From assembly GCF_058153355.1 (NCBI RefSeq), contig NZ_CM177019.1: a stretch of DNA of 64,000 nucleotides; one strand, 5' to 3'. Positions 4,676-60,402 of this stretch are shown piece by piece; the first letter of the stretch is position 1, and the number at the start of each line of letters is the position of its first letter. The translations under genes and the position numbers were made by a program. The notes beneath the pieces were generated by a model that saw only the letters and a program-made list of their open reading frames with translations, did no database searches and was not told the origin of the DNA.

Positions 4676-6753
<2,078 letters not shown>

Positions 6754-6754
<1 letters not shown>

Positions 6755-7820
6755 TACAGCACTCCTTTCGACGAGGGCAGGGTATCGCCTTCCACGCGGA
6801 TGGCCTGGCGCAGGGTGCGACCAAAAGCTTTGAACAGGCTCTCTACACGGTGGTGATCGTTTTTACCTTTGGTTTTCAGGTGCAGGGTCACGCCCATGGT
6901 GTATGAGAGCGAACGGAAGAAGTGCTCGATCATTTCGGTGCTGAGATCGCCCACGCGCTGGTAGGTAAACTCGGCTTTATATTCCAGGTGCGGGCGACCA
7001 GAGATATCCAGCGCGCAGCGGGCAAGGCATTCGTCCATCGGCAGTACAAAACCAAAGCGGCAAATACCGCGTTTGTCGCCAAGAGCAATTTTTAATGCTT
7101 CGCCCAGCGCCAGGCCGGTATCTTCGACGGTGTGGTGATCGTCGATATAGAGGTCGCCTTTGACGTTGATTTCCATCCGGAAACCGCCGTGGGTGGCGAT
7201 CTGATCCAGCATGTGATCAAAGAAGCCAACGCCGGTGTTAATCTTGCTGCCACCTTCGCGATCCAGCCACACCTGGACGTCAATCTGCGTCTCTTTGGTG
7301 TTGCGCACTACATGGGCGTAACGGTCTCGTTTAGTGAGTTGCTCACCAATCATCGGCCAGTTCAGGGCTTCGCGGTCGTAGCGTAAACCATTAATGCCCA
7401 TGTTTTCCGCCAGTTGAATGTCGGTCGCGCGATCGCCAATCACATAACTGTTAGCGCGATCCATCGCTTGCTCAGCCAGATAACGCTCCACCAGTTTTAC
7501 TTTCGGCTTACGGCAGTCGCACTCATCGGCGGGCAGGTGCGGACAAATCAGCACTTCATCAAACTGCACGCCTTGCGAGGTGAAGATCTGCATCATCAGG
7601 TTGTGCGGGCCATCAAAATCCGCCTGCGGGAAACTTTGTGTTCCCAGACCATCCTGATTAGTGATCATCACCAGTTTGTAGCCCGCTTTTTGCAGCTTCA
7701 GCAGCTGAGGGATCACGCCCGGTTCAAAGGCGAGTTTGTCAAAACGGTCCACCTGAAAATCACTCGGCGGTTCGCTAATCAGGGTTCCATCGCGATCGAT
7801 AAAAAGATACTTCTGACTCA

Positions 7821-17105: not shown

Positions 17106-18533
17106 TTAGACAATCTCTTCCGCGTACTGCCAAAGCGCTTTTAACAGCGCCACTTTTTCTTTATCGTCGGCATACTGCTGCGCCAGCATCTGAATCTCTT
17201 CTGCATAGCCTTGTAAAAACTCTGGCGTGAAGACCTGGCGGCGGTGCTCCAGCCAGCGTTGCTGCTCGGCATAATCCAGCGTCCCCGGGAAGTTGCGCGC
17301 CCGATAATTGAACAACAGCTTTTCAATTCGTTTATCAACAAAAGTGATATCCAGTGCCGGTAAATTACGCGGCTCGGTTTCCAGCACAATTTTCATTGCT
17401 GCACGATCGGCGTCACTGAAAAAGCCGTTATAAAGCTGTGCATCCACATTATCTGAAGGTGTAAACGGTTCGGCTTCCACGAATATCGCTACCACTTTTT
17501 CACGCACTTGCGGATTTTCACGCAGAATTTTTAGGTTATCGAGGCAATGCTGACGATTAATTCCCAGTCGGTCGGCATCTTCCGGGCGTAGCGTATTCGC
17601 CTGGGCCAGTACCGGACATTTATTGATATGTACCAGCTTAACCGGAACGGCGGCGTTATCGCCAAGATCGGCTTTTGCGGTATATAAACGCTCGCGCAAT
17701 GTGTCGCTATCCAGCTCCAGTAATGGCGAAATGTCTCCTGCCAAATCCACCATAATTACGGCATTGCGATTTTCAGGATGCCACGCCAGCGGTGCCACCC
17801 AGCTTGTATTGCCGCGCCATGCCCCAAACATTCCGGAAACGTGAACCAGGGGTTTCATCTGAGGAACATCAATCAACGCCATTAGTTTGTGTTTATTACG
17901 ATGGGTAAAGAGATAATCAAACAGGCGTGGCTGACGCGTTTTTACCAGTTTTGCCATCGCAATAGTGGCGTACACATCAGCCATCGCATCGTGGGCGTTG
18001 CTATGTTCAATACCATTCGCTTTGGTTAAATGCTCAAGGCGAAAGCTCGGTAGACCGTCATCATTTTCAGGCCAATTTATTCCTTCCGGGCGCAGGGCAT
18101 AACAGGCACGCATAACATCCAGTAAATCCCAGCGCGAGTTATCATGCTGCCAGCTCCAGGCGTAAGGATCGTAGAAATTACGATAAAAAACGTTGCGTGT
18201 GACTTCGTCGTCGAAACGCACATTGTTGTAGCCCAGAATACAGGTCTTCGGTACGGTAAAAAGCGAGTGAATACGGGCGGCAAACGCGGCTTCGTTTTCT
18301 CCTTTCGCTCGTGCCTCCTGCGGGGTAATACCGGTAATTAATACTGCTCCAGGCTGGGGTAAATAGTCATCCGCGGGCTTGCAGTAAAAGACTTCGGGTT
18401 CGCCGATGACATTGAATTCGTCATCGGTGCGAATGGCTGCGAACTGTGCAGGGCGATCTAACGCGGGGTGCGTGCCAAAGGTTTCGTAATCGTGAAACAA
18501 AAAGGTAGATTGTTGCTTACCGTCATTCATCAT
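17106..18533 (-). CDS. sbcB: Exodeoxyribonuclease I
   Basis: ORF 17106-18581; start trimmed to MMNDGKQQSTFLFHDYETFG (DEDDh exonuclease motif). Confidence 0.93.
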   Translation of the reverse strand: MMNDGKQQSTFLFHDYETFGTHPALDRPAQFAAIRTDDEFNVIGEPEVFYCKPADDYLPQPGAVLITGITPQEARAKGENEAAFAARIHSLFTVPKTCILGYNNVRFDDEVTRNVFYRNFYDPYAWSWQHDNSRWDLLDVMRACYALRPEGINWPENDDGLPSFRLEHLTKANGIEHSNAHDAMADVYATIAMAKLVKTRQPRLFDYLFTHRNKHKLMALIDVPQMKPLVHVSGMFGAWRGNTSWVAPLAWHPENRNAVIMVDLAGDISPLLELDSDTLRERLYTAKADLGDNAAVPVKLVHINKCPVLAQANTLRPEDADRLGINRQHCLDNLKILRENPQVREKVVAIFVEAEPFTPSDNVDAQLYNGFFSDADRAAMKIVLETEPRNLPALDITFVDKRIEKLLFNYRARNFPGTLDYAEQQRWLEHRRQVFTPEFLQGYAEEIQMLAQQYADDKEKVALLKALWQYAEEIV

Positions 18534-18741
18534 TAGGTTAAATCCGTTATTTCTGCTGTCTGCCAGAGTATCAAATATCACCGTGCTAATCAGCTTTAGC
18601 GCGACAATTTGACAGCGAGTGACAACAGATCATGTCAGATAAAAATGAGAGGGTAGTCACATTTTCTTGCACTTTATTCCAGCCAGTTCATAAGTATTTC
18701 CGTAAAAAGAACAGCTATTTGAAACTCCTGAGGGTTTGCTG

Positions 18742-19908
18742 TTGAAACGCCGTCTTATTATTGCTGCTTCTTTGTTCATTTTTAACTTATCGTCTGGTTT
18801 TGCGGCGGAAAACATTCCTTTTTCACCTCAGCCTCCACAGATTCATGCCGGGTCCTGGGTACTGATGGATTACACCACCGGTCAGATCCTCACCGCGGGT
18901 AATGAGCATCAACAGCGCAATCCCGCCAGCCTGACAAAGCTGATGACGGGTTATGTCGTGGATCGCGCTATCGATAGTCATCGCATTACGCCAGACGATA
19001 TTGTCACCGTGGGGCGCGATGCGTGGGCGAAAGATAATCCGGTGTTTGTCGGTTCTTCACTGATGTTTTTGAAAGAGGGCGATCGCGTATCGGTACGTGA
19101 TTTAAGCCGTGGTTTAATTGTGGATTCCGGAAATGACGCTTGTGTTGCTCTGGCTGACTATATTGCCGGTGGGCAACGGCAGTTTGTTGAAATGATGAAC
19201 AACTATGCCGAGAAGCTGCATCTCAAGGATACGCATTTTGAAACAGTGCATGGTCTGGATGCACCTGGCCAGCATAGCTCGGCTTATGATTTAGCTGTGC
19301 TTTCTCGCGCTATCATCCACGGCGAGCCCGAGTTTTATCATATGTACAGTGAGAAAAGTCTCACCTGGAACGGTATCACCCAGCAAAACCGTAACGGGTT
19401 GTTGTGGGATAAAACCATGAATGTTGACGGCCTGAAAACGGGTCATACTTCTGGTGCCGGGTTTAATCTCATTGCTTCGGCTGTAGATGGGCAGCGTCGT
19501 CTCATTGCAGTGGTAATGGGGGCTGACAGTGCAAAAGGTCGTGAGGAAGAGGCAAGAAAATTACTGCGTTGGGGGCAACAAAACTTTACTACGGTGCAAA
19601 TTTTGCACCGTGGGAAAAAGGTCGGAACGGAACGCATCTGGTATGGCGATAAAGAAAATATCGACCTGGGAACGGAACAAGAGTTCTGGATGGTGCTACC
19701 GAAAGCCGAAATTCCACATATCAAAGCCAAATATACCCTTGATGGTAAAGAGCTCACCGCGCCAATTAGCGCCCATCAGCGGGTAGGGGAAATTGAACTT
19801 TACGACCGTGATAAACAGGTGGCGCACTGGCCGCTGGTTACCCTGGAATCTGTCGGGGAAGGCAGCATGTTTTCTCGCCTGAGTGATTATTTCCACCATA
19901 AGGCCTGA
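18742..19908 (+). CDS. dacD: D-alanyl-D-alanine carboxypeptidase (PBP6b)
   Basis: ORF with signal peptide and SxxK motif (PASLTKLMT), SGN motif; likely TTG start at 18742 after GAGGG RBS (18736 alternative). Confidence 0.88.
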   Translation: MKRRLIIAASLFIFNLSSGFAAENIPFSPQPPQIHAGSWVLMDYTTGQILTAGNEHQQRNPASLTKLMTGYVVDRAIDSHRITPDDIVTVGRDAWAKDNPVFVGSSLMFLKEGDRVSVRDLSRGLIVDSGNDACVALADYIAGGQRQFVEMMNNYAEKLHLKDTHFETVHGLDAPGQHSSAYDLAVLSRAIIHGEPEFYHMYSEKSLTWNGITQQNRNGLLWDKTMNVDGLKTGHTSGAGFNLIASAVDGQRRLIAVVMGADSAKGREEEARKLLRWGQQNFTTVQILHRGKKVGTERIWYGDKENIDLGTEQEFWMVLPKAEIPHIKAKYTLDGKELTAPISAHQRVGEIELYDRDKQVAHWPLVTLESVGEGSMFSRLSDYFHHKA

Positions 19909-20026
19909 CCTTTCTTTTGCAGCAGACTGGCAGGAGTGCGAGTCTGCTCGCATAATCAACACTCATTCCTTGTGGTTTTAATTTTGCAACTATACTGTAT
20001 ATAAAAACAGCATCAATGGAGGCGTC

Positions 20027-20500
20027 ATGAACTACGAGATTAAGCAGGAAGAGAAACGTACCGTTGCAGGTTTCCATCTCGTTGGCCCGTGGGAACAGAC
20101 GGTAAAGAAAGGTTTTGAGCAGTTGATGATGTGGGTAGATAGCAAAAATATTGTGCCGAAGGAGTGGGTTGCTGTCTATTACGACAATCCGGATGAAACA
20201 CCCGCCGAAAAATTACGCTGCGACACCGTCGTGACGGTACCGAATAACTTTACGCTCCCCGAAAACAGTGAGGGCGTCATTCTGACAGAAATTTCAGGTG
20301 GTCAATATGCGGTGGCGGTGGCTCGTGTAGTCGGTGATGATTTTGCTAAACCCTGGTATCAGTTCTTTAATAGCCTCTTGCAGGACAGTGCTTATGAAAT
20401 GTTACCAAAGCCCTGCTTCGAGGTTTACTTGAACAATGGCGCGGAAGATGGGTACTGGGATATCGAAATGTATGTTGCGGTGCAGCCAAAACATCACTAA
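20027..20500 (+). CDS. sbmC: DNA gyrase inhibitor
   Basis: 157-aa [27 protein letters not shown]; conserved position. Confidence 0.9.
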
Positions 20501-20697
20501 TTCATCTCAGGGCGGTGTGTTAACGCGAAGACCACTCTTTTTTTGAAAGCGAAAAGAGTAAGATGCGCCTTTCAAATTTTTCGCTCCTGCCGGGAAATTA
20601 CACTGTTCCCGGTATGTCCGTCGGATAACTCAGAGGCGCGCCTTCTGGCCGACAGATGTGTTATGAGCGCTTTTCATCTTCATTACGGAGTTTCTGA

Positions 20698-21756
20698 GTG
20701 TGTGCCGATAAGTCATTAAGCCCGTTTGAAATCCGGGTATACCGCCATTACCGCATTGTGCATGGTACTCGGGTCGCGCTGGCATTCCTGCTCACTTTTC
20801 TCATTATCCGCCTGTTTACTATCCCGGAAAGCACCTGGCCGCTGGTCACCATGGTGGTGATTATGGGGCCAATCTCGTTCTGGGGGAACGTTGTCCCTCG
20901 TGCCTTCGAACGTATTGGCGGTACGGTGTTGGGGTCGATTTTAGGTCTTATCGCTCTGCAACTGGAGTTAATTTCGTTACCGCTGATGTTAGTCTGGTGC
21001 GCGGCGGCGATGTTTCTTTGCGGTTGGCTGGCGCTGGGCAAGAAACCGTATCAAGGATTATTGATTGGGGTGACGCTGGCAATTGTTGTGGGTTCCCCGA
21101 CAGGTGAAATTGATACGGCGTTATGGCGAAGCGGCGATGTGATCCTCGGCTCTTTACTGGCAATGTTGTTTACCGGTATCTGGCCACAACGGGCGTTCAT
21201 CCACTGGCGCATTCAACTGGCGAAAAGTCTGACCGAGTATAATCGGGTCTATCAATCTGCATTCTCACCGAACTTACTCGAACGCCCACGTCTGGAAAGC
21301 CATCTACAAAAACTGCTGACCGATGCCGTGAAAATGCGTGGGCTGATTGCGCCCGCCAGCAAAGAAACCCGTATTCCCAAATCGATATATGAAGGTATCC
21401 AGACCATTAACCGCAATCTGGTTTGTATGCTGGAGTTGCAAATCAATGCGTACTGGGCCACGCGCCCCAGCCATTTCGTGTTATTGAACGCGCAAAAACT
21501 TCGTGATACCCAGCACATGATGCAGCAAATACTGCTGAGCCTTGTTCATGCGCTGTACGAAGGTAATCCGCAGCCGGTTTTTGCCAATACGGAAAAATTG
21601 AACGATGCTGTGGAAGAGCTGCGTCAGTTGCTCGATAACCACCATGACCTGAAGGTTGTGGAAACACCAATCTATGGTTATGTGTGGCTGAACATGGAAA
21701 CGGCACATCAGCTTGAGTTGCTATCGAATCTGATTTGCCGGGCCTTGCGCAAATAA
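20698..21756 (+). CDS. yeeA: FUSC-like inner membrane protein
   Basis: 352-aa ORF, N-terminal TM helices; conserved position. Confidence 0.85.
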   Translation: MCADKSLSPFEIRVYRHYRIVHGTRVALAFLLTFLIIRLFTIPESTWPLVTMVVIMGPISFWGNVVPRAFERIGGTVLGSILGLIALQLELISLPLMLVWCAAAMFLCGWLALGKKPYQGLLIGVTLAIVVGSPTGEIDTALWRSGDVILGSLLAMLFTGIWPQRAFIHWRIQLAKSLTEYNRVYQSAFSPNLLERPRLESHLQKLLTDAVKMRGLIAPASKETRIPKSIYEGIQTINRNLVCMLELQINAYWATRPSHFVLLNAQKLRDTQHMMQQILLSLVHALYEGNPQPVFANTEKLNDAVEELRQLLDNHHDLKVVETPIYGYVWLNMETAHQLELLSNLICRALRK

Positions 21757-21927
21757 TTCCTGAACTTCAGAATCATCTTGCTGCTGCTTCGATTCAGCAA
21801 GGATAAAGGGTATGATAGTGAAAAGGGATAAAAGCATTGTCATCTGCGGCAGCTATGAGTAATGTTGGCCCTAACGAATAGCGGTTGCTTAAACGAATCC
21901 GACTCTCACATTATCAGGGGTATAAAA

Positions 21928-22257
21928 ATGGAAACTACCAAGCCTTCATTCCAGGACGTACTGGAATTTGTTCGTCTGTTCCGTCGTAAGAACAAACTGC
22001 AACGTGAAATTCAGGACGTTGAGAAAAAGATCCGTGACAACCAGAAGCGCGTCCTGTTGCTGGACAACCTGAGCGATTACATCAAGCCAGGGATGAGCGT
22101 TGAAGCAATCCAGGGCATCATCGCCAGCATGAAAGGTGACTATGAAGATCGCGTTGACGATTACATCATCAAAAATGCCGAGCTCTCCAAAGAACGCCGC
22201 GATATCTCCAAAAAGCTGAAAGCTATGGGCGAAATGAAAAACGGCGAAGCGAAGTAA
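21928..22257 (+). CDS. yeeX: UPF0265 protein YeeX
   Basis: ORF 21862-22257; start set at [24 protein letters not shown]. Confidence 0.88.
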
Positions 22258-22357
22258 TTCCCGTTTTATTCAATGAGGGTTGCCCGGCAACCCTCATTGC
22301 TCATTGATTCTTATCTGTGTATCACCGTCATCATTCTCATCTGAGAACCAATCGAAA

Positions 22358-22585
22358 TTAACAACAGCCTTCTTCTGTATGCAGCAAGGCAAAAAGTTCT
22401 GTAACTCCATTGTTATTAACTGCACTGGTTACTAACACGTTGTGCGCTCCAGCTTCCCGTAACCAACTTTTCACCAAAGATATTTGTTCCATGCTGGCTA
22501 AATCTGCTTTGGTTACTACTCCAATGACCGGGTGATTCATGGCCCGGTAGGGCGTTTTTACCTCTAATTCCTGCTTCAGCGCTGA
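22358..22585 (-). pseudogene. Fragment of EutP/PduV-like GTPase (yoeF-like island-edge remnant)
   Basis: C-terminal-like peptide ...NHPVIGVVTKADLASMEQISLVKSWLREAGAHNVLVTSAVNNNGVTELFALL with no intact N-terminus; the upstream part of the ORF is antisense to an IS66-like fragment. Confidence 0.4.
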
Positions 22586-22599
22586 GATTCCTGCTTGTT

Positions 22600-22770
22600 G
22601 CCGGAAAAGCAGGCACCTGCCGTCTGAACGGTATCGATCCGGAAGCGTATCTGCGCCATATTCTGAGCATACTGCCGGAATGGCCCTCCAACCGTGTTGA
22701 CGAACTCCTGCCATGGAACGTAGTTCTCACCAATAAATAAGCGTCAATACGGTGCTCCGTTGACGCTGAT
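22600..22770 (+). mobile_element. IS66-family transposase 3' remnant and terminal repeat tip
   Basis: Encodes ...GIDPEAYLRHILSILPEWPSNRVDELLPWNVVLTNK*, matching the C-terminus of the intact IS66-family TnpC at 41197-42768; end sequence resembles the IS66 terminal repeat. Confidence 0.7.
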
Positions 22771-24280
22771 ATGACTTTCCGTGTCAAACCGGAATCTCTA
22801 ATTTTGACGATTTTCTTTTTAGGTTTAATTCCCTGAGGGCGACGTAGCAGTAAATCCGACGGTGAATCACGCTGATATTCGCGGGTTGGATACCGCATTA
22901 CAGAGGTCCGTCATATGAGCCTGCCACTTTCTTACGTCGCGAATCAGCTTTGTTCCGCCGTCGCCAAGCGCTAACGTGGGTTACTCTTGTACCGGGCTAC
23001 GTCGCCTTCAGGGAACTGGTTATTCTCATTTTTTATTTGTGACATTGTGGTTGTTGTGCGACAGACATTGCTATTCGGCCCATATCCCAGATAAAACCCG
23101 CCAGCTCACGTGCAACAGCAACAATTGTAATATTGACATTCTTTCCTTTGGCCTGAAGTTTTCGATACCTCTTACAAAGCCTGAGTTGAGCATCCCATGC
23201 TCTGTCAATGACGGGGCGGGGTAAATTTTCCTGCCTTTTTTGTATTGCCGGACTGATGCGTGCCGGATGACGGTAACTCCACGCTGCCTCGACCAATAGC
23301 TTTCTGGCATAGCTGTTTCCGGCTTTGGTAATGCTGCCCTGATGTCTGCTTCCACCCGATGAATATTCTGATGGCGTGATACCAAACCATGACATCAGTT
23401 GTCGTGGATGTTCAAAACGGGTCAGATCACCCAGTTCAGAAATTAATCCAACCGCAGTAATAAACTGAATCCCTCGCATGGCTTGCAGCGCCTCTACTAC
23501 CGGATACAGCCTCCATTCGGTAACGGCCTCCTTCAGGGCGGATTCCAGCCGTTCACATTGTGCCTGCCGGTCTTCTATTGTACGACGGTGTTCGTCAAAA
23601 GCTAATTGTCGCCAGGGACTTTCGAATGAGTATTTGCTGAGCCAGCGTCGGTGTGCAGGGCCCCAATCTGCTCGCCCGACATAATGGACCCCATGAACCA
23701 GAAGAAACGATTTCAGACGTTGCCTTGCATGCCGTAAATCATCGCGGGCAGATGCCCATGCCCGGGCCAAATCCCGGAATGCCTCATCTTCAATGCCGGG
23801 TACGTAGACAGCAGAAAGATCTCCTGCACGCAGTGAACGCACAAGTCTGATGGCATCACGGCGATCGGTTTTAACCCGCTCCCCCGGTTTTTTCGGGATA
23901 AGTGAGGGGGCGCAGACCATGCAGTCAAAACCGGATTTCACCAGCCGACGATAAAGTCCATAACCACAGGGCCCCGCTTCATAAACGATACTGACCTGCG
24001 ATGACTTTGACCTGAGACGTTTACAAAGATTCTGAATATCAGTAGGTGATGTGCCAATTTTACCCATCAGTTCAACAGGTTCTGAATTGATAGCATAAGC
24101 GACAGTAATCGATTCTTTGTGAACATCTAACCCGACGTACAATGTGTTATTGTTGTTCATGCTGGCCTCCGTGGTGGAAATACCGGGGTGTAGCAACAGC
24201 TCACCCATGCGGCTCTGACAACGATGTTAACCCGCGTTAAATATCCCACGTTGGCCAGCATCTGTCTCACGGAAAGTCAT
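22771..24280 (-). mobile_element. IS110-family insertion sequence, copy 1 (about 1,510 bp, 13-bp imperfect terminal inverted repeats ATGACTTTCCGTG)
   Basis: Identical to copy 2 at 54561-56070 in inverted orientation; ends atgactttccgtg (22771) and cacggaaagtcat (24268-24280). Confidence 0.85.
23033..24160 (-). CDS. IS110-family DEDD transposase/recombinase
   Basis: ORF 23033-24208; start set at MNNNNTLYVGLDVHK; N-terminal RuvC-like DEDD region (GLDVHK, YEAGPCGY, DRRDA) and C-terminal IS110 domain (ITKAGNSYARKLL). Confidence 0.88.
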   Translation of the reverse strand: MNNNNTLYVGLDVHKESITVAYAINSEPVELMGKIGTSPTDIQNLCKRLRSKSSQVSIVYEAGPCGYGLYRRLVKSGFDCMVCAPSLIPKKPGERVKTDRRDAIRLVRSLRAGDLSAVYVPGIEDEAFRDLARAWASARDDLRHARQRLKSFLLVHGVHYVGRADWGPAHRRWLSKYSFESPWRQLAFDEHRRTIEDRQAQCERLESALKEAVTEWRLYPVVEALQAMRGIQFITAVGLISELGDLTRFEHPRQLMSWFGITPSEYSSGGSRHQGSITKAGNSYARKLLVEAAWSYRHPARISPAIQKRQENLPRPVIDRAWDAQLRLCKRYRKLQAKGKNVNITIVAVARELAGFIWDMGRIAMSVAQQPQCHK

Positions 24281-24398
24281 ACTGCCTTACCTTTTCTCAG
24301 GCTATTTTTGCTTTTTTTTGCTTTTCCCCGCCACTTTATGGTGATTATCACATCAATATACATCGATAGATATTAACGTAACTGAAGTGAGGTGAAGC

Positions 24399-28389: not shown

Positions 28390-28712
28390 TTTTTTGCATG
28401 CCCGTATTCAACGGCTTCTTTAAGGAGTTCATTTTCCATCGTTTTTTTGCCGAGCAGGCGCTGGAGTTCTTTAATCTGCTTCATGGCAGCAGCAAGTTCA
28501 GAGGCAGGAACGACCTGCTCTCCTGCGGCCACAGCAGTAAGACTTCCCTCCTGGTATTGCTTGCGCCAGAGAAATAACTGGCTGGCTGCCACACCGTGTT
28601 GCCGGGCAACAAGGGAGACCGTCATTCCCGGTTCAAAACTCTGCTGAACAATAGCGATCTTTTCCTGTGTAGTACGCCGTCTGCGTTTCTCCGGTCCTAA
28701 GACATCAATCAT
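28347..28712 (-). CDS. insC: IS2 OrfA (InsC, HTH)
   Basis: [41 protein letters not shown]; overlaps orfB in the -1 frame. Confidence 0.9.
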
Positions 28713-29789
28713 CTGCTCTCCAATGACTAGTCTAAAAACTAGTATTAAGACTATCACTTATTTAAGTGATATTGGTTGTCTGGAGATTCAGGGGGCCAGT
28801 CTACACTTCCTCATGAACATCTGTTCAACGATCTTTCCTCTGTTGTGGATGCTCCTTGCTATCCTTTTTCACAACGGCTTGTTGATAAAAAAGTCACGGC
28901 AGAAATCCAGTGGGCATTAAAACACGATCCTTATTGCTGCGCTGATAATATGGACCGCAAACCTATTGAAGATGTGATCTTCGAAATTAATAACTTTATC
29001 TCGCTCGGTGGTCGCACCATTATTGATGCCACAGGGTCTGAGTCTATCGGACGAGATGCGCAGGCATTACGAGAAGTCGCATTAAAAACAGGTCTGAATA
29101 TTGTTGCTTCCTCCGGTCCCTACCTGGAAAAATTTGAAAACCAGAGAATTCATAAAACGGTTGATGAACTGGCGACAACGATCGATAAAGAATTGAATCA
29201 AGGGATTGGCGATACGGATATTCGTGCCGGAATGATCGGTGAAATAGGTGTTTCACCGACATTTACCGAAGCCGAGCATAACAGCTTGCGGGCTGCCTCG
29301 CTGGCACAGATTAACAATCCTCATGTGGCGATGAATATTCACATGCCGGGCTGGCTTCGTCGCGGTGATGAAGTACTCGACATTGTGTTAGGTGAAATGG
29401 GCGTCTCGCCAAATAAAGTCTCTCTCGCACACTCGGATCCGTCAGGAAAAGACGTGGCGTATCAGCGGAAAATGCTTGATAAAGGTGTCTGGCTGGAATT
29501 CGACATGATTGGCCTAGACATTACCTTCCCGAAAGAGGGAATAGCGCCAGGGGTGCAGGAGACTGCCGATGCCGTCGCTCATCTCATTGAGTTGGGATAC
29601 GCCGATCAGCTTGTTCTCAGCCACGATGTCTTCCTTAAACAAATGTGGGCTAAAAATGGCGGTAATGGCTGGGGATTTGTTCCAGATGTTTTTCTGGCCT
29701 ATCTGGCGGAGCGCGGCGTCGATAAAACGATCCTCAAAAAACTCTGTATCGATAATCCCGGACGATTATTGACCGCATAAAACCATTAT

Positions 29790-54490: not shown

Positions 54491-54552
54491 AAAAATCTAA
54501 GCTCAGAAAACGGATTAAAGTAAAAATCTAAGCTCAGAAAACGGATTAAAGT
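54491..54552 (+). repeat. Perfect 31-bp tandem duplication (2 copies) abutting the left end of IS110-family copy 2
   Basis: aaaaatctaagctcagaaaacggattaaagt at 54491-54521 and again at 54522-54552. Confidence 0.9.
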
Positions 54553-54560
54553 AAGGCAGT

Positions 54561-56070
54561 ATGACTTTCCGTGAGACAGATGCTGGCCAACGTGGGATAT
54601 TTAACGCGGGTTAACATCGTTGTCAGAGCCGCATGGGTGAGCTGTTGCTACACCCCGGTATTTCCACCACGGAGGCCAGCATGAACAACAATAACACATT
54701 GTACGTCGGGTTAGATGTTCACAAAGAATCGATTACTGTCGCTTATGCTATCAATTCAGAACCTGTTGAACTGATGGGTAAAATTGGCACATCACCTACT
54801 GATATTCAGAATCTTTGTAAACGTCTCAGGTCAAAGTCATCGCAGGTCAGTATCGTTTATGAAGCGGGGCCCTGTGGTTATGGACTTTATCGTCGGCTGG
54901 TGAAATCCGGTTTTGACTGCATGGTCTGCGCCCCCTCACTTATCCCGAAAAAACCGGGGGAGCGGGTTAAAACCGATCGCCGTGATGCCATCAGACTTGT
55001 GCGTTCACTGCGTGCAGGAGATCTTTCTGCTGTCTACGTACCCGGCATTGAAGATGAGGCATTCCGGGATTTGGCCCGGGCATGGGCATCTGCCCGCGAT
55101 GATTTACGGCATGCAAGGCAACGTCTGAAATCGTTTCTTCTGGTTCATGGGGTCCATTATGTCGGGCGAGCAGATTGGGGCCCTGCACACCGACGCTGGC
55201 TCAGCAAATACTCATTCGAAAGTCCCTGGCGACAATTAGCTTTTGACGAACACCGTCGTACAATAGAAGACCGGCAGGCACAATGTGAACGGCTGGAATC
55301 CGCCCTGAAGGAGGCCGTTACCGAATGGAGGCTGTATCCGGTAGTAGAGGCGCTGCAAGCCATGCGAGGGATTCAGTTTATTACTGCGGTTGGATTAATT
55401 TCTGAACTGGGTGATCTGACCCGTTTTGAACATCCACGACAACTGATGTCATGGTTTGGTATCACGCCATCAGAATATTCATCGGGTGGAAGCAGACATC
55501 AGGGCAGCATTACCAAAGCCGGAAACAGCTATGCCAGAAAGCTATTGGTCGAGGCAGCGTGGAGTTACCGTCATCCGGCACGCATCAGTCCGGCAATACA
55601 AAAAAGGCAGGAAAATTTACCCCGCCCCGTCATTGACAGAGCATGGGATGCTCAACTCAGGCTTTGTAAGAGGTATCGAAAACTTCAGGCCAAAGGAAAG
55701 AATGTCAATATTACAATTGTTGCTGTTGCACGTGAGCTGGCGGGTTTTATCTGGGATATGGGCCGAATAGCAATGTCTGTCGCACAACAACCACAATGTC
55801 ACAAATAAAAAATGAGAATAACCAGTTCCCTGAAGGCGACGTAGCCCGGTACAAGAGTAACCCACGTTAGCGCTTGGCGACGGCGGAACAAAGCTGATTC
55901 GCGACGTAAGAAAGTGGCAGGCTCATATGACGGACCTCTGTAATGCGGTATCCAACCCGCGAATATCAGCGTGATTCACCGTCGGATTTACTGCTACGTC
56001 GCCCTCAGGGAATTAAACCTAAAAAGAAAATCGTCAAAATTAGAGATTCCGGTTTGACACGGAAAGTCAT
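54561..56070 (+). mobile_element. IS110-family insertion sequence, copy 2 (inverted relative to copy 1)
   Basis: Ends atgactttccgtg (54561) and cacggaaagtcat (to 56070); internal sequence identical to copy 1 over all inspected ORFs. Confidence 0.85.
54681..55808 (+). CDS. IS110-family DEDD transposase/recombinase
   Basis: Same 375-aa protein as copy 1; GGAGG RBS at 54671. Confidence 0.88.
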   Translation: MNNNNTLYVGLDVHKESITVAYAINSEPVELMGKIGTSPTDIQNLCKRLRSKSSQVSIVYEAGPCGYGLYRRLVKSGFDCMVCAPSLIPKKPGERVKTDRRDAIRLVRSLRAGDLSAVYVPGIEDEAFRDLARAWASARDDLRHARQRLKSFLLVHGVHYVGRADWGPAHRRWLSKYSFESPWRQLAFDEHRRTIEDRQAQCERLESALKEAVTEWRLYPVVEALQAMRGIQFITAVGLISELGDLTRFEHPRQLMSWFGITPSEYSSGGSRHQGSITKAGNSYARKLLVEAAWSYRHPARISPAIQKRQENLPRPVIDRAWDAQLRLCKRYRKLQAKGKNVNITIVAVARELAGFIWDMGRIAMSVAQQPQCHK

Positions 56071-56740
56071 ATCAGCGTTAATGGAGAATCATATTGATGC
56101 TTATTTATTGGTGAGAACTACGTTCCATGGCAGGAGTTCATCAATACGGTTGGAAGGTTATTCCGGCAGTACGCTCAGGATATGGCGCAGATACGCTTCC
56201 GGATCAATGTCGTTCAGAAGGCAAGTGCCGATAAGCCCATACAACAGTGCACTGCGCTCGCCGCCGAAGAACATAAAGTTTTTATTTCCGAGACAGATGG
56301 CACAAAGGGCTTTTTCCGCGGCATTATGTCTGCCTCCGCCTGACCGTCAACACTGTAATAACAGAGTGCGCCCCACTGATTCAGTACACAGCTGAACCAT
56401 TCTCCCAGTCTGGATTTTTGGATAGCGTGGCATTTTTCTCCACCATGCATGCAGTGAGTCCAGTAACAGTTTGCTCTTCTTCTGCCTGACCACAAGATGT
56501 GCTGGACTGGTAAACGATGGGGATACCTGCTTACGCGAGAGCAATAAGTGGCTGGCCACAATTCTCGGTACAAAACTCTGCTGAATAGCAGCGATTTTCC
56601 CAGCGTGGTGCGTCGTTTGCATTTTACTGGTTCTAAGTTAACAATTATCTGTTCACTAATGACTACTCTAAAAACTTGTATCAGGACTATCACTTATTTA
56701 AGTGATATTGGTTGTCTGGAGATTCAGGGGGCCAGTCTAT
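56071..56740 (-). mobile_element. Composite IS remnant: IS66-like tnpC 3' fragment plus IS2-like terminal fragment
   Basis: 56071-56400 encodes an IS66 TnpC C-terminal tail on the minus strand, about 85-90% identical to the remnant at 22600-22770; 56650-56740 is an IS2-type terminal repeat (GGGGGCCAGTCTA). Confidence 0.65.
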
Positions 56741-58012
56741 AAACTTTTTACAAAAGGATGAATGCAGAAGGTTACTCTAATGGCCAGAGTGATGACAATG
56801 ATGGTCAGACGTTGACCTGCAGAAACTGCATTTTAATTGGTCTATAAAGTCTGCAAGAGGAATCAGGGTCAGATCAGTGAGTCTTATCGCGGCCCGAAGC
56901 TATGACTGAAAGAAGGCTGGATACAGAATTGCAACAATTTGGCAATGTCAGAACACAGAAGCTTTGCAAGCAGGTGAAAGGTTATGTCTAGCAAAAGGAG
57001 TATATCAGAATACATCTACTGATGTACAAAACACAACAATAGCTTCATGATATATAAATACGTGATGACGAGTGGTACTCCGCATGGTTATTTAACTTCT
57101 CAGCACCACTAATGATCCTGAGCAACTTCGTATTTGGGCCATTGCCATGGAGTAGAAAGCTGTGTCTGAGAATGCAGAATTTGAGAAAAGAATTCGCTTT
57201 CTTGGAGAGCTTCTGAAAATGGCACGCTAACAACGTTTTGTTAAAAAATGTGAATCACTTGCCGGGGCTGCATTTTCTATTCGAGGAGAATGTTGACGTA
57301 GATATTACAGAAATCTCAGCGCATCAGGATAAACTGCTACCTTAGGTCAACCACCAAAAGAAAATACAATACGTCCAGTTTGTATGCCTTTAATAACACA
57401 TCTTTTAAATGTTGAAGAATTATCCCGCCTGCTGAAGAACGTTGCTCTGAGTGTGATAAACCTTTTTATTCTTGATGATGTCAGCGAGAAGATGGAATAT
57501 ATCCCCGACTGGGTCGTGGTTACCCGGTTAAACATCTGGTGGCGCTAATAAATCTGGCAAGTCACATTCTGTTGAATGCTGTGACAGTGCCTTACCGAGA
57601 GAGCGAAATTGTGGTGTTCTAGTGCATAGTCGCCACCATTCCGGATAATTCTATTGCGTTGTTTTACAAGTTCTTTTACAGCGCAGATCTGTCGCTGACG
57701 TTGAATCAATAGCCTGGATTTCAGAACACAATGCCCGTTTGCTGGTTGGTCCGGCAGTAGCATTAATTCATTATCTGAATGAAATGTGTCAATCCACAGA
57801 AACCGCTGTCAATGACACATTTTGTCGGACGTTAACACGAGAAAGTCTGGCTATTCCGTAATGCCATCTTATTTCGTAATGGATTGAGAATGCTGGATTT
57901 TTAATTATATTACGCGCAGTATTAATCGCGTAAATGTTTTGCGGTCAGCAACGGTGGGGGATCCATTGTTCTGTTCAATGAATACCATCATACATTTGAA
58001 TCAGGAGTCGGT

Positions 58013-58558
58013 ATGATGATTTTGGTGACGGGGGGCGCACGGAGCGGGAAGAGTCGCCACGCAGAGGCGCTTATTGGGGACTCTTCACAGGTTCTGTATA
58101 TCGCTACCTCGCAAATCCTTGATGATGAGATGGCTGCACGGATAGAACATCATCGGCAAGGCCGCCCGGCGCACTGGCGCACAGTGGAGCGCTGGCAACA
58201 TCTTGATGAATTAATTCATGCAGACATTAACCCGAATGAGGTTGTGTTGCTGGAATGCGTTACCACAATGGTGACTAATCTGTTGTTTGATTATGGCGGC
58301 GATAAAGACCCTGATGAATGGGATTATCAGGCGATGGAACAGGCGATTAATGCTGAGATTCAGTCGTTGATTGCTGCCTGCCAACGTTGCCCCGCAAAGG
58401 TTGTATTAGTGACTAACGAAGTGGGAATGGGGATTGTGCCGGAGAGTCGTCTGGCACGACATTTTCGTGATATTGCCGGGCGGGTAAATCAGCAGTTGGC
58501 CGCTGCGGCAAATGAAGTATGGCTGGTGGTTTCGGGTATTGGAGTAAAAATCAAATGA
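58013..58558 (+). CDS. cobU: Adenosylcobinamide kinase / adenosylcobinamide-phosphate guanylyltransferase
   Basis: 181-aa [21 protein letters not shown] with P-loop. Confidence 0.93.
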
Positions 58559-59322
58559 GTAAATTATTTTGGGCGATGCTCTCATTTATTACGCGTCTGC
58601 CTGTACCGCGTCGCTGGTCCCAGGGACTGGATTTCGAGCATTATTCTCGCGGTATTATTACTTTTCCTTTAATTGGATTATTGCTTGGCGCGATTAGCGG
58701 GCTGGTCTTCATGGTGCTGCAGGCATGGTGTGGCGTACCACTGGCGGCACTGTTTAGCGTACTTGTGCTGGCGCTGATGACCGGGGGATTCCACCTGGAC
58801 GGCCTCGCCGATACCTGTGATGGCGTATTTTCTGCACGTAGCCGCGATCGCATGTTGGAAATCATGCGTGATAGCCGTTTAGGCACCCATGGCGGTCTGG
58901 CATTGATTTTTGTTGTACTGGCAAAGATTCTGGTATTAAGCGAGTTGGCTCTGCGTGGCGAACCGATCCTTGCATCGCTGGCGGCAGCATGTGCGGTCAG
59001 CCGCGGGACTGCCGCATTATTGATGTATCGTCATCGTTATGCGCGGGAAGAAGGGCTTGGCAATGTGTTCATTGGCAAAATTGATGGGCGACAAACCTGC
59101 GTCACACTCGGCTTAGCCGCTATTTTTGCTGCCGTATTATTGCCGGGTATGCATGGTGTGGCTGCTATGGTGGTGACGATGGTGGCGATTTTCATCCTCG
59201 GTCAGCTTCTCAAACGTACGCTGGGCGGGCAAACCGGCGATACGCTGGGAGCTGCTATAGAGCTTGGTGAACTGGTCTTCCTGCTGGCACTGCTATCTGG
59301 CACTGCTATAAAGAGACGTGAC
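58555..59322 (+). CDS. cobS: Cobalamin synthase; no stop codon, reads through in frame into cobT
   Basis: [17 protein letters not shown]...; ORF tool reports one 627-aa ORF 58519-60402; 13-bp direct repeat CTGGCACTGCTAT at 59284-59296 and 59297-59309 sits where the stop is expected. Confidence 0.8.
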
Positions 59323-60402
59323 ATGCAAACACTTGCCGATTTACTGAATACGATCCCTGCTATCGATCCTGCCGCTATGTCGCGTGCACAACGGCATATT
59401 GACGGGTTACTCAAACCTGTTGGTAGCCTGGGAAGGCTGGAGGCGCTTGCCATACAACTGGCGGGAATGCCGGGGTTGAATGGCATACCGCATGTGGGCA
59501 AAAAAGCGGTACTGGTTATGTGTGCCGATCACGGCGTCTGGGAGGAAGGGGTCGCTATTTCCCCAAAAGAAGTGACAGCCATTCAGGCTGAAAATATGAC
59601 CCGCGGAACAACCGGCGTGTGTGTGCTGGCAGCACAAGCGGGCGCTAACGTCCACGTAGTTGATGTTGGTATTGATAGTGCTGAGCCTATCCCCGGGCTT
59701 ATCAACATGCGTGTCGCACGAGGTAGCGGCAATATTGCTTCAGCTCCGGCAATGAGTCGCCGTCAGGCTGAAAAGTTGCTTTTGGACGTCATATGTTATA
59801 CGCGGGAGCTGGCAAAAAACGGTGTCACGCTGTTTGGTGTAGGTGAACTGGGGATGGCAAACACGACACCGGCAGCGGCAATAGTCAGCACAATCACTGG
59901 CCGGGATCCTGAAGAAGTGGTTGGGATTGGCGCAAACCTGCCGACAGATAAACTGGCTAATAAAATTGATGTTGTGCGCCGGGCGATTACGTTGAATCAA
60001 CCAAATCCGCAGGATGGCGTTGATGTCCTGGCAAAAGTGGGTGGATTTGATTTGGTCGGAATGGCTGGCGTGATGTTAGGCGCTGCTTCCTGCGGTTTAC
60101 CCGTGTTGCTGGATGGATTTCTTTCTTATGCTGCCGCGCTCGCAGCCTGCCAGATGTCTCCTGCAATCAAACCGTATCTCATTCCTTCTCACCTGTCGGC
60201 AGAAAAAGGGGCGCGTATTGCGCTGTCGCATTTGGGGCTGGAGCCTTATCTCAATATGGAGATGCGTTTAGGTGAGGGGAGTGGCGCAGCTCTGGCGATG
60301 CCCATCATCGAAGCTGCCTGTGCGATATATAACAACATGGGCGAACTTGCTGCCAGTAATATTGTTCTACCGGGGAATACGACTTCTGATTTGAACAGTT
60401 AA
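59323..60402 (+). CDS. cobT: Nicotinate-nucleotide--dimethylbenzimidazole phosphoribosyltransferase
   Basis: Region beginning [40 protein letters not shown], 359 aa to stop at 60402. Confidence 0.9.

Follow-up and report, generated by a model that had tools for sequence, protein, structure and literature searches.

In the cob operon of Salmonella and Citrobacter, cobUST follows the cbi genes in the order cbiA...cbiG...cbiP-cobUST (the Salmonella gene order is given in PMC5282855). In E. coli, the interval between cobU and yeeX is a published insertion site of the CP4-44 island (PMC3032704). Two transcription signals at this island end in K-12 were listed as constitutive promoters in a survey of RpoD holoenzyme binding in vitro (Shimada et al. 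2014, PMC3946193): TTGAGA-16-TATATT in the cobU/insH-6 spacer, assigned to cobUST, and TGTACA-17-CATGAT, assigned to 'yoeG', the latter motif accompanying RNA polymerase holoenzyme binding in the yoeG-yoeH spacer.

Here, we describe the counterpart of this interval at positions 56741-58012 of the window, a stretch of 64,000 nucleotides from contig NZ_CM177019.1 (RefSeq assembly GCF_058153355.1). Compared with the Salmonella/Citrobacter operon, cobUST occupies the same place, with remnants of the cbiG 5' end and the cbiP 3' end just upstream of cobU, whereas the cbi genes and the B12 riboswitch are missing, as are codons 1-88 of the cbiG stub, and an island stands in place of what was lost. The interval is a mosaic of several pieces rather than a single element. 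We consider it very probable that it represents a fossil built up in layers that has one working part, made up of insertion sequence (IS) debris, cob relics and the cobU promoter. The left 975 bp (56740-57716) are the cobU-proximal end of a 35-kb CP4-44-type island, and the right 296 bp (57717-58012) are backbone, a decayed and AT-enriched leftover of the ancestral cob operon.

An earlier note made from the letters of this DNA had described the interval as AT-rich with short ORFs only, which holds. Its GC content of 0.412 compares with 0.501 in the window as a whole and 0.514 in cobUST-ldtA, and just 1.3% of equal-sized windows are as AT-rich. The largest ORF wholly within it encodes 72 aa (57545..57763, minus strand); since 500 shuffles gave a longest ORF of 74 +/- 19 aa, the ORF content is as expected for non-coding sequence. 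A comparison of the longest ORF per tile along the window was set aside because genes spanning tile borders went uncounted. The note had also proposed four kinds of content, three of them rightly. Pseudogene debris is present, as IS66 tnpB' and tnpC', a piece of an IS4-family transposase gene, a stub of cbiG and a relic of the cbiP 3' end; blastn and tblastn searches for pseudogene relics, for which the note had recommended blastx, recovered the IS66, IS4-family and CbiP relics. The suspected original attachment junction does lie inside the interval (57716|57717), but as a deletion joint and not as an att site. Regulatory elements for cobUST are represented by a predicted promoter but not by a riboswitch. 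Small RNAs found no support: Rfam searches of window positions 56000-58600 gave no match at E<=1, and the cobU leader folds no better than its shuffles (z = -0.03). Neither an sRNA nor a riboswitch nor an intact gene was found in 56741-58012.

The cobU-proximal end of the island

The right coordinate of the interval, 58012, is the base preceding the cobU ATG (58013). The left one, which the earlier note took for the island edge, falls 2 bp beyond the point at which an IS2-like relic ends (56739), and island DNA continues for another 975 bp. Homology of the window to the island-free strain N3 (L004) and to a pdu-positive E. coli (L009) begins at 57717, and the same is true of E. marmotae and E. 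albertii, placing the island/backbone junction (no strand) at 57716..57717, ~975 bp to the right of the earlier edge. The segment 56741-57716 is wholly absent from N3, ET120, L009, E. marmotae and E. albertii, and these empty-site genomes carry either a pduV relic or a pocR-riboswitch-cbiG' arrangement instead. N3 and ET120, examined as the island-free comparison that the earlier note had called for, share the order tmaR, pduV relic, 'cobalamin biosynthesis protein' relic and cobU. On the other side of the island, the left backbone (sbcB, dacD, sbmC, yeeA, tmaR and pduV') corresponds to window positions 17821-22540. The island thus defined, 22541-57716 (35.2 kb), is a composite of CP4-44 type between yeeX/tmaR and cobU, and it replaces 280 bp of N3-type island-free sequence. 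Its left junction, 22540|22541, falls within the pduV relic adjoining tmaR (yeeX).

This island end is common. A 171-bp probe spanning the junction was found in 3727 of 5426 complete E. coli genomes (~69%), which shows that the island end is one event that is widely shared in the species. The K-12 end of CP4-44 (MG1655 2065765-2068240) is like that of the window, with the same order and position beside cobU, 99.4-99.7% identity and the same IS4'|cbiG' junction. The two differ to the left of 56740, where the window has the IS2-like relic, a truncated IS66 and an IS110-family element, whereas K-12 has yoeH and yoeA. In MG1655 the CP4-44 boundary is annotated at the equivalent of window position 57757, ~40 bp to the right of the junction placed here.

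Islands of the integrase type, as in the P4/CP4 type, are recognized by direct repeats at their junctions or by a tRNA target with an adjacent integrase, and the junctions of this island display neither pattern. Reading 22540|22541 against 57716|57717 brought up no common repeat, no tRNA was found at either junction, and a repeat search returned no IS termini and no att-like repeats. The pieces on either side of 57716|57717 have both been cut internally, and 280 bp of backbone are gone, so that this position represents a deletion joint rather than an att site. The same reasoning extends to the boundaries between pieces: all of the pieces are truncated internally, so these boundaries are joints of deletion or illegitimate recombination and not transposition termini. 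Successive IS insertions and IS-associated deletions would be the most likely source of such boundaries.

Sequence divergence changes at the same position, which backs the placement of the boundary there. In the same strain pairs, it amounts to 0-0.6% in 56740-57716 and to 1-7% in 57717-60402 (stub, cobU and cobT). This step at the junction suggests that the island end has recently spread by horizontal transfer or has undergone a sweep.

Two further features concern the island interior. An inverted repeat of 1683 bp with 98.9% identity is present at window positions 22612-24294 and 54548-56229, each copy consisting of a C-terminal IS66 fragment and an IS110-family (ISSso6-like) element. Between the two copies, the orientation of the island interior is opposite to that in genomes such as EC190329, consistent with an IS-mediated inversion.

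Insertion sequence relics on the island side

Immediately outside the interval, 56524..56739 (minus strand) holds the left-end relic of an IS2-like element of the IS3 family, comprising a terminal inverted repeat and a frame-shifted insC-like start. It shares 83-84% identity with the IS2 terminus, among others that of the IS2 copy at window positions 28624-28803, and 95.6% identity with a second relic that K-12 carries. Just to its left, 56128-56487 (minus strand) contains a second IS66-family relic matching TnpC residues 378-503 at 30% identity, which probably derives from another IS66 copy than the one described below.

To the right of the IS2-like relic follow 229 bp of AT-rich island spacer (56740..56968, no strand), for which no origin was assigned. 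In K-12, NCTC11476 and R8, this spacer runs on into the upstream region of yoeA, a TonB-dependent receptor gene that is either intact or IS2-disrupted in strains with this continuity. Compared with the collinear part of IS66 tnpB, the spacer gave a local score of 19 against a shuffle mean of 18.3, i.e. no similarity was detected, and Pfam matched none of its plus-strand frames.

The largest relic, at 56969..57527 (plus strand), belongs to the IS66 family, as judged from tnpB and tnpC homology in the gene order of the family. It contains the tnpB 3' end (~56969-57041) and tnpC codons 1-151 (57084-57527), with stops and frameshifts. A plasmid IS66 element aligns to it by blastn with 71.3% identity over 571 nt (E 5e-77), and TnpC residues 1-151 align to 57084-57527 by tblastn with 47% identity (E 1.4e-25) across several stops and frameshifts. 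Collinearity with this plasmid element, at 71% DNA identity, extends from the tnpB 3' end through the spacer into tnpC as far as codon 151. A complete element measures ~2.5 kb, of which ~560 bp remain here, without tnpA, the DDE domain or the inverted-repeat ends. The relic breaks off after 151 of the 511 tnpC codons and is interrupted by internal stops; it is an IS66 fragment, not an element. Searches detected nothing collinear with tnpA or with the 5' portion of tnpB, nor matching inverted repeats in 56400-58100. In the K-12 annotation, 57084-57616 corresponds to the pseudogene yoeG. Pfam gave no match to the three plus-strand frames or to a stitched IS66-type pseudo-protein, and the assignments to IS66 and IS4 are based on BLAST and NCBIfam rather than on Pfam domains. 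Just 5' of the tnpC' start codon, at 57023..57051 (plus strand), lies the promoter-like site TGTACA-17-CATGAT, whose hexamers match those reported for K-12 (PMC3946193).

The remaining island-side piece, 57521..57709 (plus strand), comes from the interior of an IS4-family transposase gene; it covers residues 166-228 of a 445-aa protein and contains one internal stop. The 445-aa IS4-family transposases known from E. coli plasmids are 73% identical to it at the amino acid level over these residues (tblastn E 5.5e-24; plasmid match E 2e-21), and blastn gave 77%. The NCBIfam model NF033592 also matches (E 5e-5), with a score far under its cut-off of 115 bits, as no more than 63 residues are left, and the PGAP label supports the assignment. 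Compared with IS4-family elements, the window has a 63-codon internal piece with a stop, and the ends of both gene and element are missing; the remainder of this transposase was not found anywhere in the window. We had read 57521-57760 by eye as a continuation of IS66 TnpC, and rejected that candidate when tblastn with TnpC was blank at E 10 and the IS4-family match stood at 73%. Since all of the island-side pieces are cut internally and contain stops or frameshifts, none would be able to encode a transposase.

The K-12 pseudogene yeeH corresponds to window positions 57623-57709, and 57521-57709 comprises yeeH together with the portion that IS5 split off from it in K-12. The earlier note was correct in stating that the K-12 site is disrupted by IS5: IS5H lies there within sequence of identical order. 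MG1655 and NEB10-beta match the window in two blocks, 56738-57622 and 57619-58100, again at 99.4-99.7%, and IS5H is inserted at a CTAG, window 57619-57622, that was duplicated as the target site. The window lacks IS5H and its CTAG target is empty.

Remnants of the cob operon and the predicted cobUST promoter

To the right of the junction, 57717..57861 (plus strand) holds the last 48 codons of a cbiG stub ORF, identified by alignment and by the CbiG model match of full-length stubs. The relic that PGAP annotates as 'cobalamin biosynthesis protein' (57718-57861) is the tail of this Escherichia-wide stub. Full Escherichia stubs of 144 aa match positions 1-127 of the 351 positions of NF004463 (CbiG), with E-values of 1e-19 to 1e-23 and scores of 69-84 bits against a cut-off of 546 bits. 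The stub is therefore a CbiG remnant, not a cbiG gene. In the window, stub codons ~89-119 are retained and the first 88 are lost; CbiG-derived codons reach ~57801 and are followed by an out-of-frame tail to the TAA at 57859-57861. The dN/dS of the stub (0.32-0.47 vs 0.03 for cobS and pocR) indicates that it is under strongly relaxed constraint. It is still an open reading frame in several species despite this ratio.

The decayed and frame-shifted 3' end of cbiP, about its last 70 codons, occupies 57802..58012 (plus strand; left limit approximate). In blastn, two segments are collinear with cbiP of Citrobacter, Salmonella and Klebsiella (57873-57929, E 4.7e-7; 57982-58030, E 7e-11), and in tblastn CbiP C-termini align with E-values of 1e-3 to 3.5e-4 in a frame other than that of the stub ORF. 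NCBIfam models gave no match in the frames of 57780-58012. Two other assignments were tried and dropped: the PGAP relic as the CbiP C-terminus, as the full stubs match CbiG 1-127 and cbiP DNA begins further right, and a by-eye CbiP alignment of the stub tail in the stub frame, as tblastn puts CbiP in a different frame. Judged from these alignments, the Escherichia ancestor had cbiG (codons 1 to ~119) fused to the last ~70 codons of cbiP, followed by cobUST.

Escherichia genomes that retain pdu still carry the sequence upstream of this fusion. In L009, E. marmotae and E. albertii the order is pdu, pduF, pocR, a stub of 136-144 aa and cobU, with a full-length cobalamin riboswitch (RF00174, 106-114 bits) between pocR and the cbiG stub (L009 5608-5782, E. 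albertii L010 4608-4782 and E. marmotae L012 4608-4782). The riboswitch seems to have been retained to control the salvage genes after the loss of all cbi genes. Upstream of cobU in the window, the search that detects RF00174 in these loci gave no match at E<=1 in 56000-58600. We infer that cobUST was cut off from this ancestral control when the island, together with the accompanying deletion, took away the riboswitch and its promoter.

Island-bearing genomes appear to run their corrinoid-salvage genes from a promoter in the decayed cbiP tail. The candidate, TTGAGA-16-TATATT at 57884..57911 (plus strand), is situated inside the cbiP relic; it scores 10/12 in a consensus scan and has a spacer within the 16-18 bp range of sigma-70 promoters. 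The match alone is weak because sites of such quality are no more numerous in the region than expected from shuffles (3 found vs 3.5 expected). Its hexamers, the 16-bp spacing and the distance to cobU are identical to those of the cobUST promoter of Shimada et al. (2014), for which the support consists of in-vitro RpoD holoenzyme binding in K-12 (PMC3946193). IS5, which lies ~260 bp upstream of that promoter in K-12, is absent from the window. A Shine-Dalgarno sequence, AGGAG, can be read at 58003-58007, ahead of the cobU start codon at 58013-58015 (together 58003..58015, plus strand), and both are invariant or almost so across Escherichia. The promoter site is mostly conserved in E. marmotae, and in E. 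albertii its spacer has a 6-nt gap. By sequence match and the published in-vitro polymerase binding screen in K-12, TTGAGA-16-TATATT and AGGAG are shown as the predicted signals that drive cobUST. With the ancestral control gone, cobUST would rely on the promoter in the cbiP relic, and transcription reading through from 57023-57051 may contribute, as no terminator-like site was found between 57051 and cobU.

Between E. coli and E. marmotae, the 130-150 bp ahead of cobU share 91% identity, compared with 76% for cobU third positions and 80% for the stub, which fits some functional constraint. A palindrome with perfect 7-bp arms, TTACGCG-N10-CGCGTAA (57910-57933), overlaps the -10 hexamer and the likely cobUST start.

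Three observations concern the salvage genes themselves. In the window, a 13-bp tandem duplication at 59284-59309 (CTGGCACTGCTAT twice) eliminates the cobS stop codon and fuses cobS and cobT in frame, giving an ORF at 58519..60402 with the linker SGTAIKRRD. The duplication is absent from all 5413 complete E. coli genomes that gave a match, the matches listed spanning 98 bases of the record vs 111 in the query; either a mutation private to this strain or a sequencing error may account for it. In the E. albertii locus L010, the interval from the cbiG stub to ldtA (5436-6876) has cobS as its only gene call, with neither cobU nor cobT, so that the salvage operon appears to be decaying there. In Escherichia sp. 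MOD1-EC7003 (L041), an intact cbiP reads directly into cobU, the sequence is Klebsiella-like, and its CobU is 81% identical to that of the window; this looks like a complete cob operon that was acquired separately within Escherichia.

Alternative explanations and significance

We give almost no credence to the possibility that the entire interval is conserved backbone carrying just the cobU promoter. This description is true of the last 296 bp alone, which are backbone and hold the promoter, and the occurrence of the full 1272 bp at a coverage of at least 80% in 2857 of the 5426 genomes would agree with it, but the empty sites of N3, ET120, L009, E. marmotae and E. albertii refute it for 56741-57716, and the part that is absent there is composed of IS66 and IS4 fragments. 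Another proposal accepts the 975 bp as island DNA and holds that they are kept for a cell function, be it a non-coding RNA from TGTACA-17-CATGAT, read-through into cobUST or a buffer against the island. The low diversity of the segment (0-0.6% vs 1-7% for the backbone) could reflect selection rather than recent spread, and the segment is constant while the DNA to its left varies by strain (yoeA, a PfkB module or IS3). Holoenzyme binding at the promoter motif in the K-12 yoeG-yoeH spacer (PMC3946193) and the terminator-free path from 57051 to cobU point the same way. However, natural variants exist in which the segment is interrupted or lost: K-12 and other strains have an IS5 or IS1 inserted, SLDY13 has an IS1 143 bp from cobU, and ET120 has a deletion to 188 bp. 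The recent horizontal spread of one island end predicts low diversity equally well, no Rfam family is represented, and the ORFs are at chance level. We regard such a function as unlikely.

Still somewhat less probable, in our estimate, is that the cobU leader acts as an uncharacterised regulatory RNA or operator that took over from the riboswitch, for instance in cobinamide induction. Lawrence and Roth (1995) reportedly found that E. coli cobUST has several promoters and is induced by cobinamide, and such induction is not explained by the fossil reading. The high identity upstream of cobU between E. coli and E. marmotae, compared with cobU third positions, and the position of the palindrome over the -10 hexamer and likely start would suit such an element. 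Against it, the leader is no more stable than its shuffles and has no Rfam match, the right arm of the palindrome is changed in both E. marmotae and E. albertii, and the conservation may reflect the promoter, the ribosome-binding site and short divergence time alone. The reading that we prefer remains that of a layered fossil in which the cobU promoter is the one working part.

All of the components are of known kinds, and their K-12 counterparts CP4-44, yoeG, yeeH and IS5H are already annotated. Outside annotation the significance is slight: the island boundary is corrected from 56741 to 57716|57717, and the pieces of debris are named. The relic-borne cobUST promoter provides an example of a promoter that survived or arose in pseudogene DNA, as follows from known annotation and literature. 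It is very doubtful that 57862-58012 contains a further control element, either the palindrome as an operator or a leader RNA, that makes cobUST responsive to corrinoids; if it does, a corrinoid response would exist in the 69% of E. coli genomes from which the island has cut away the riboswitch.
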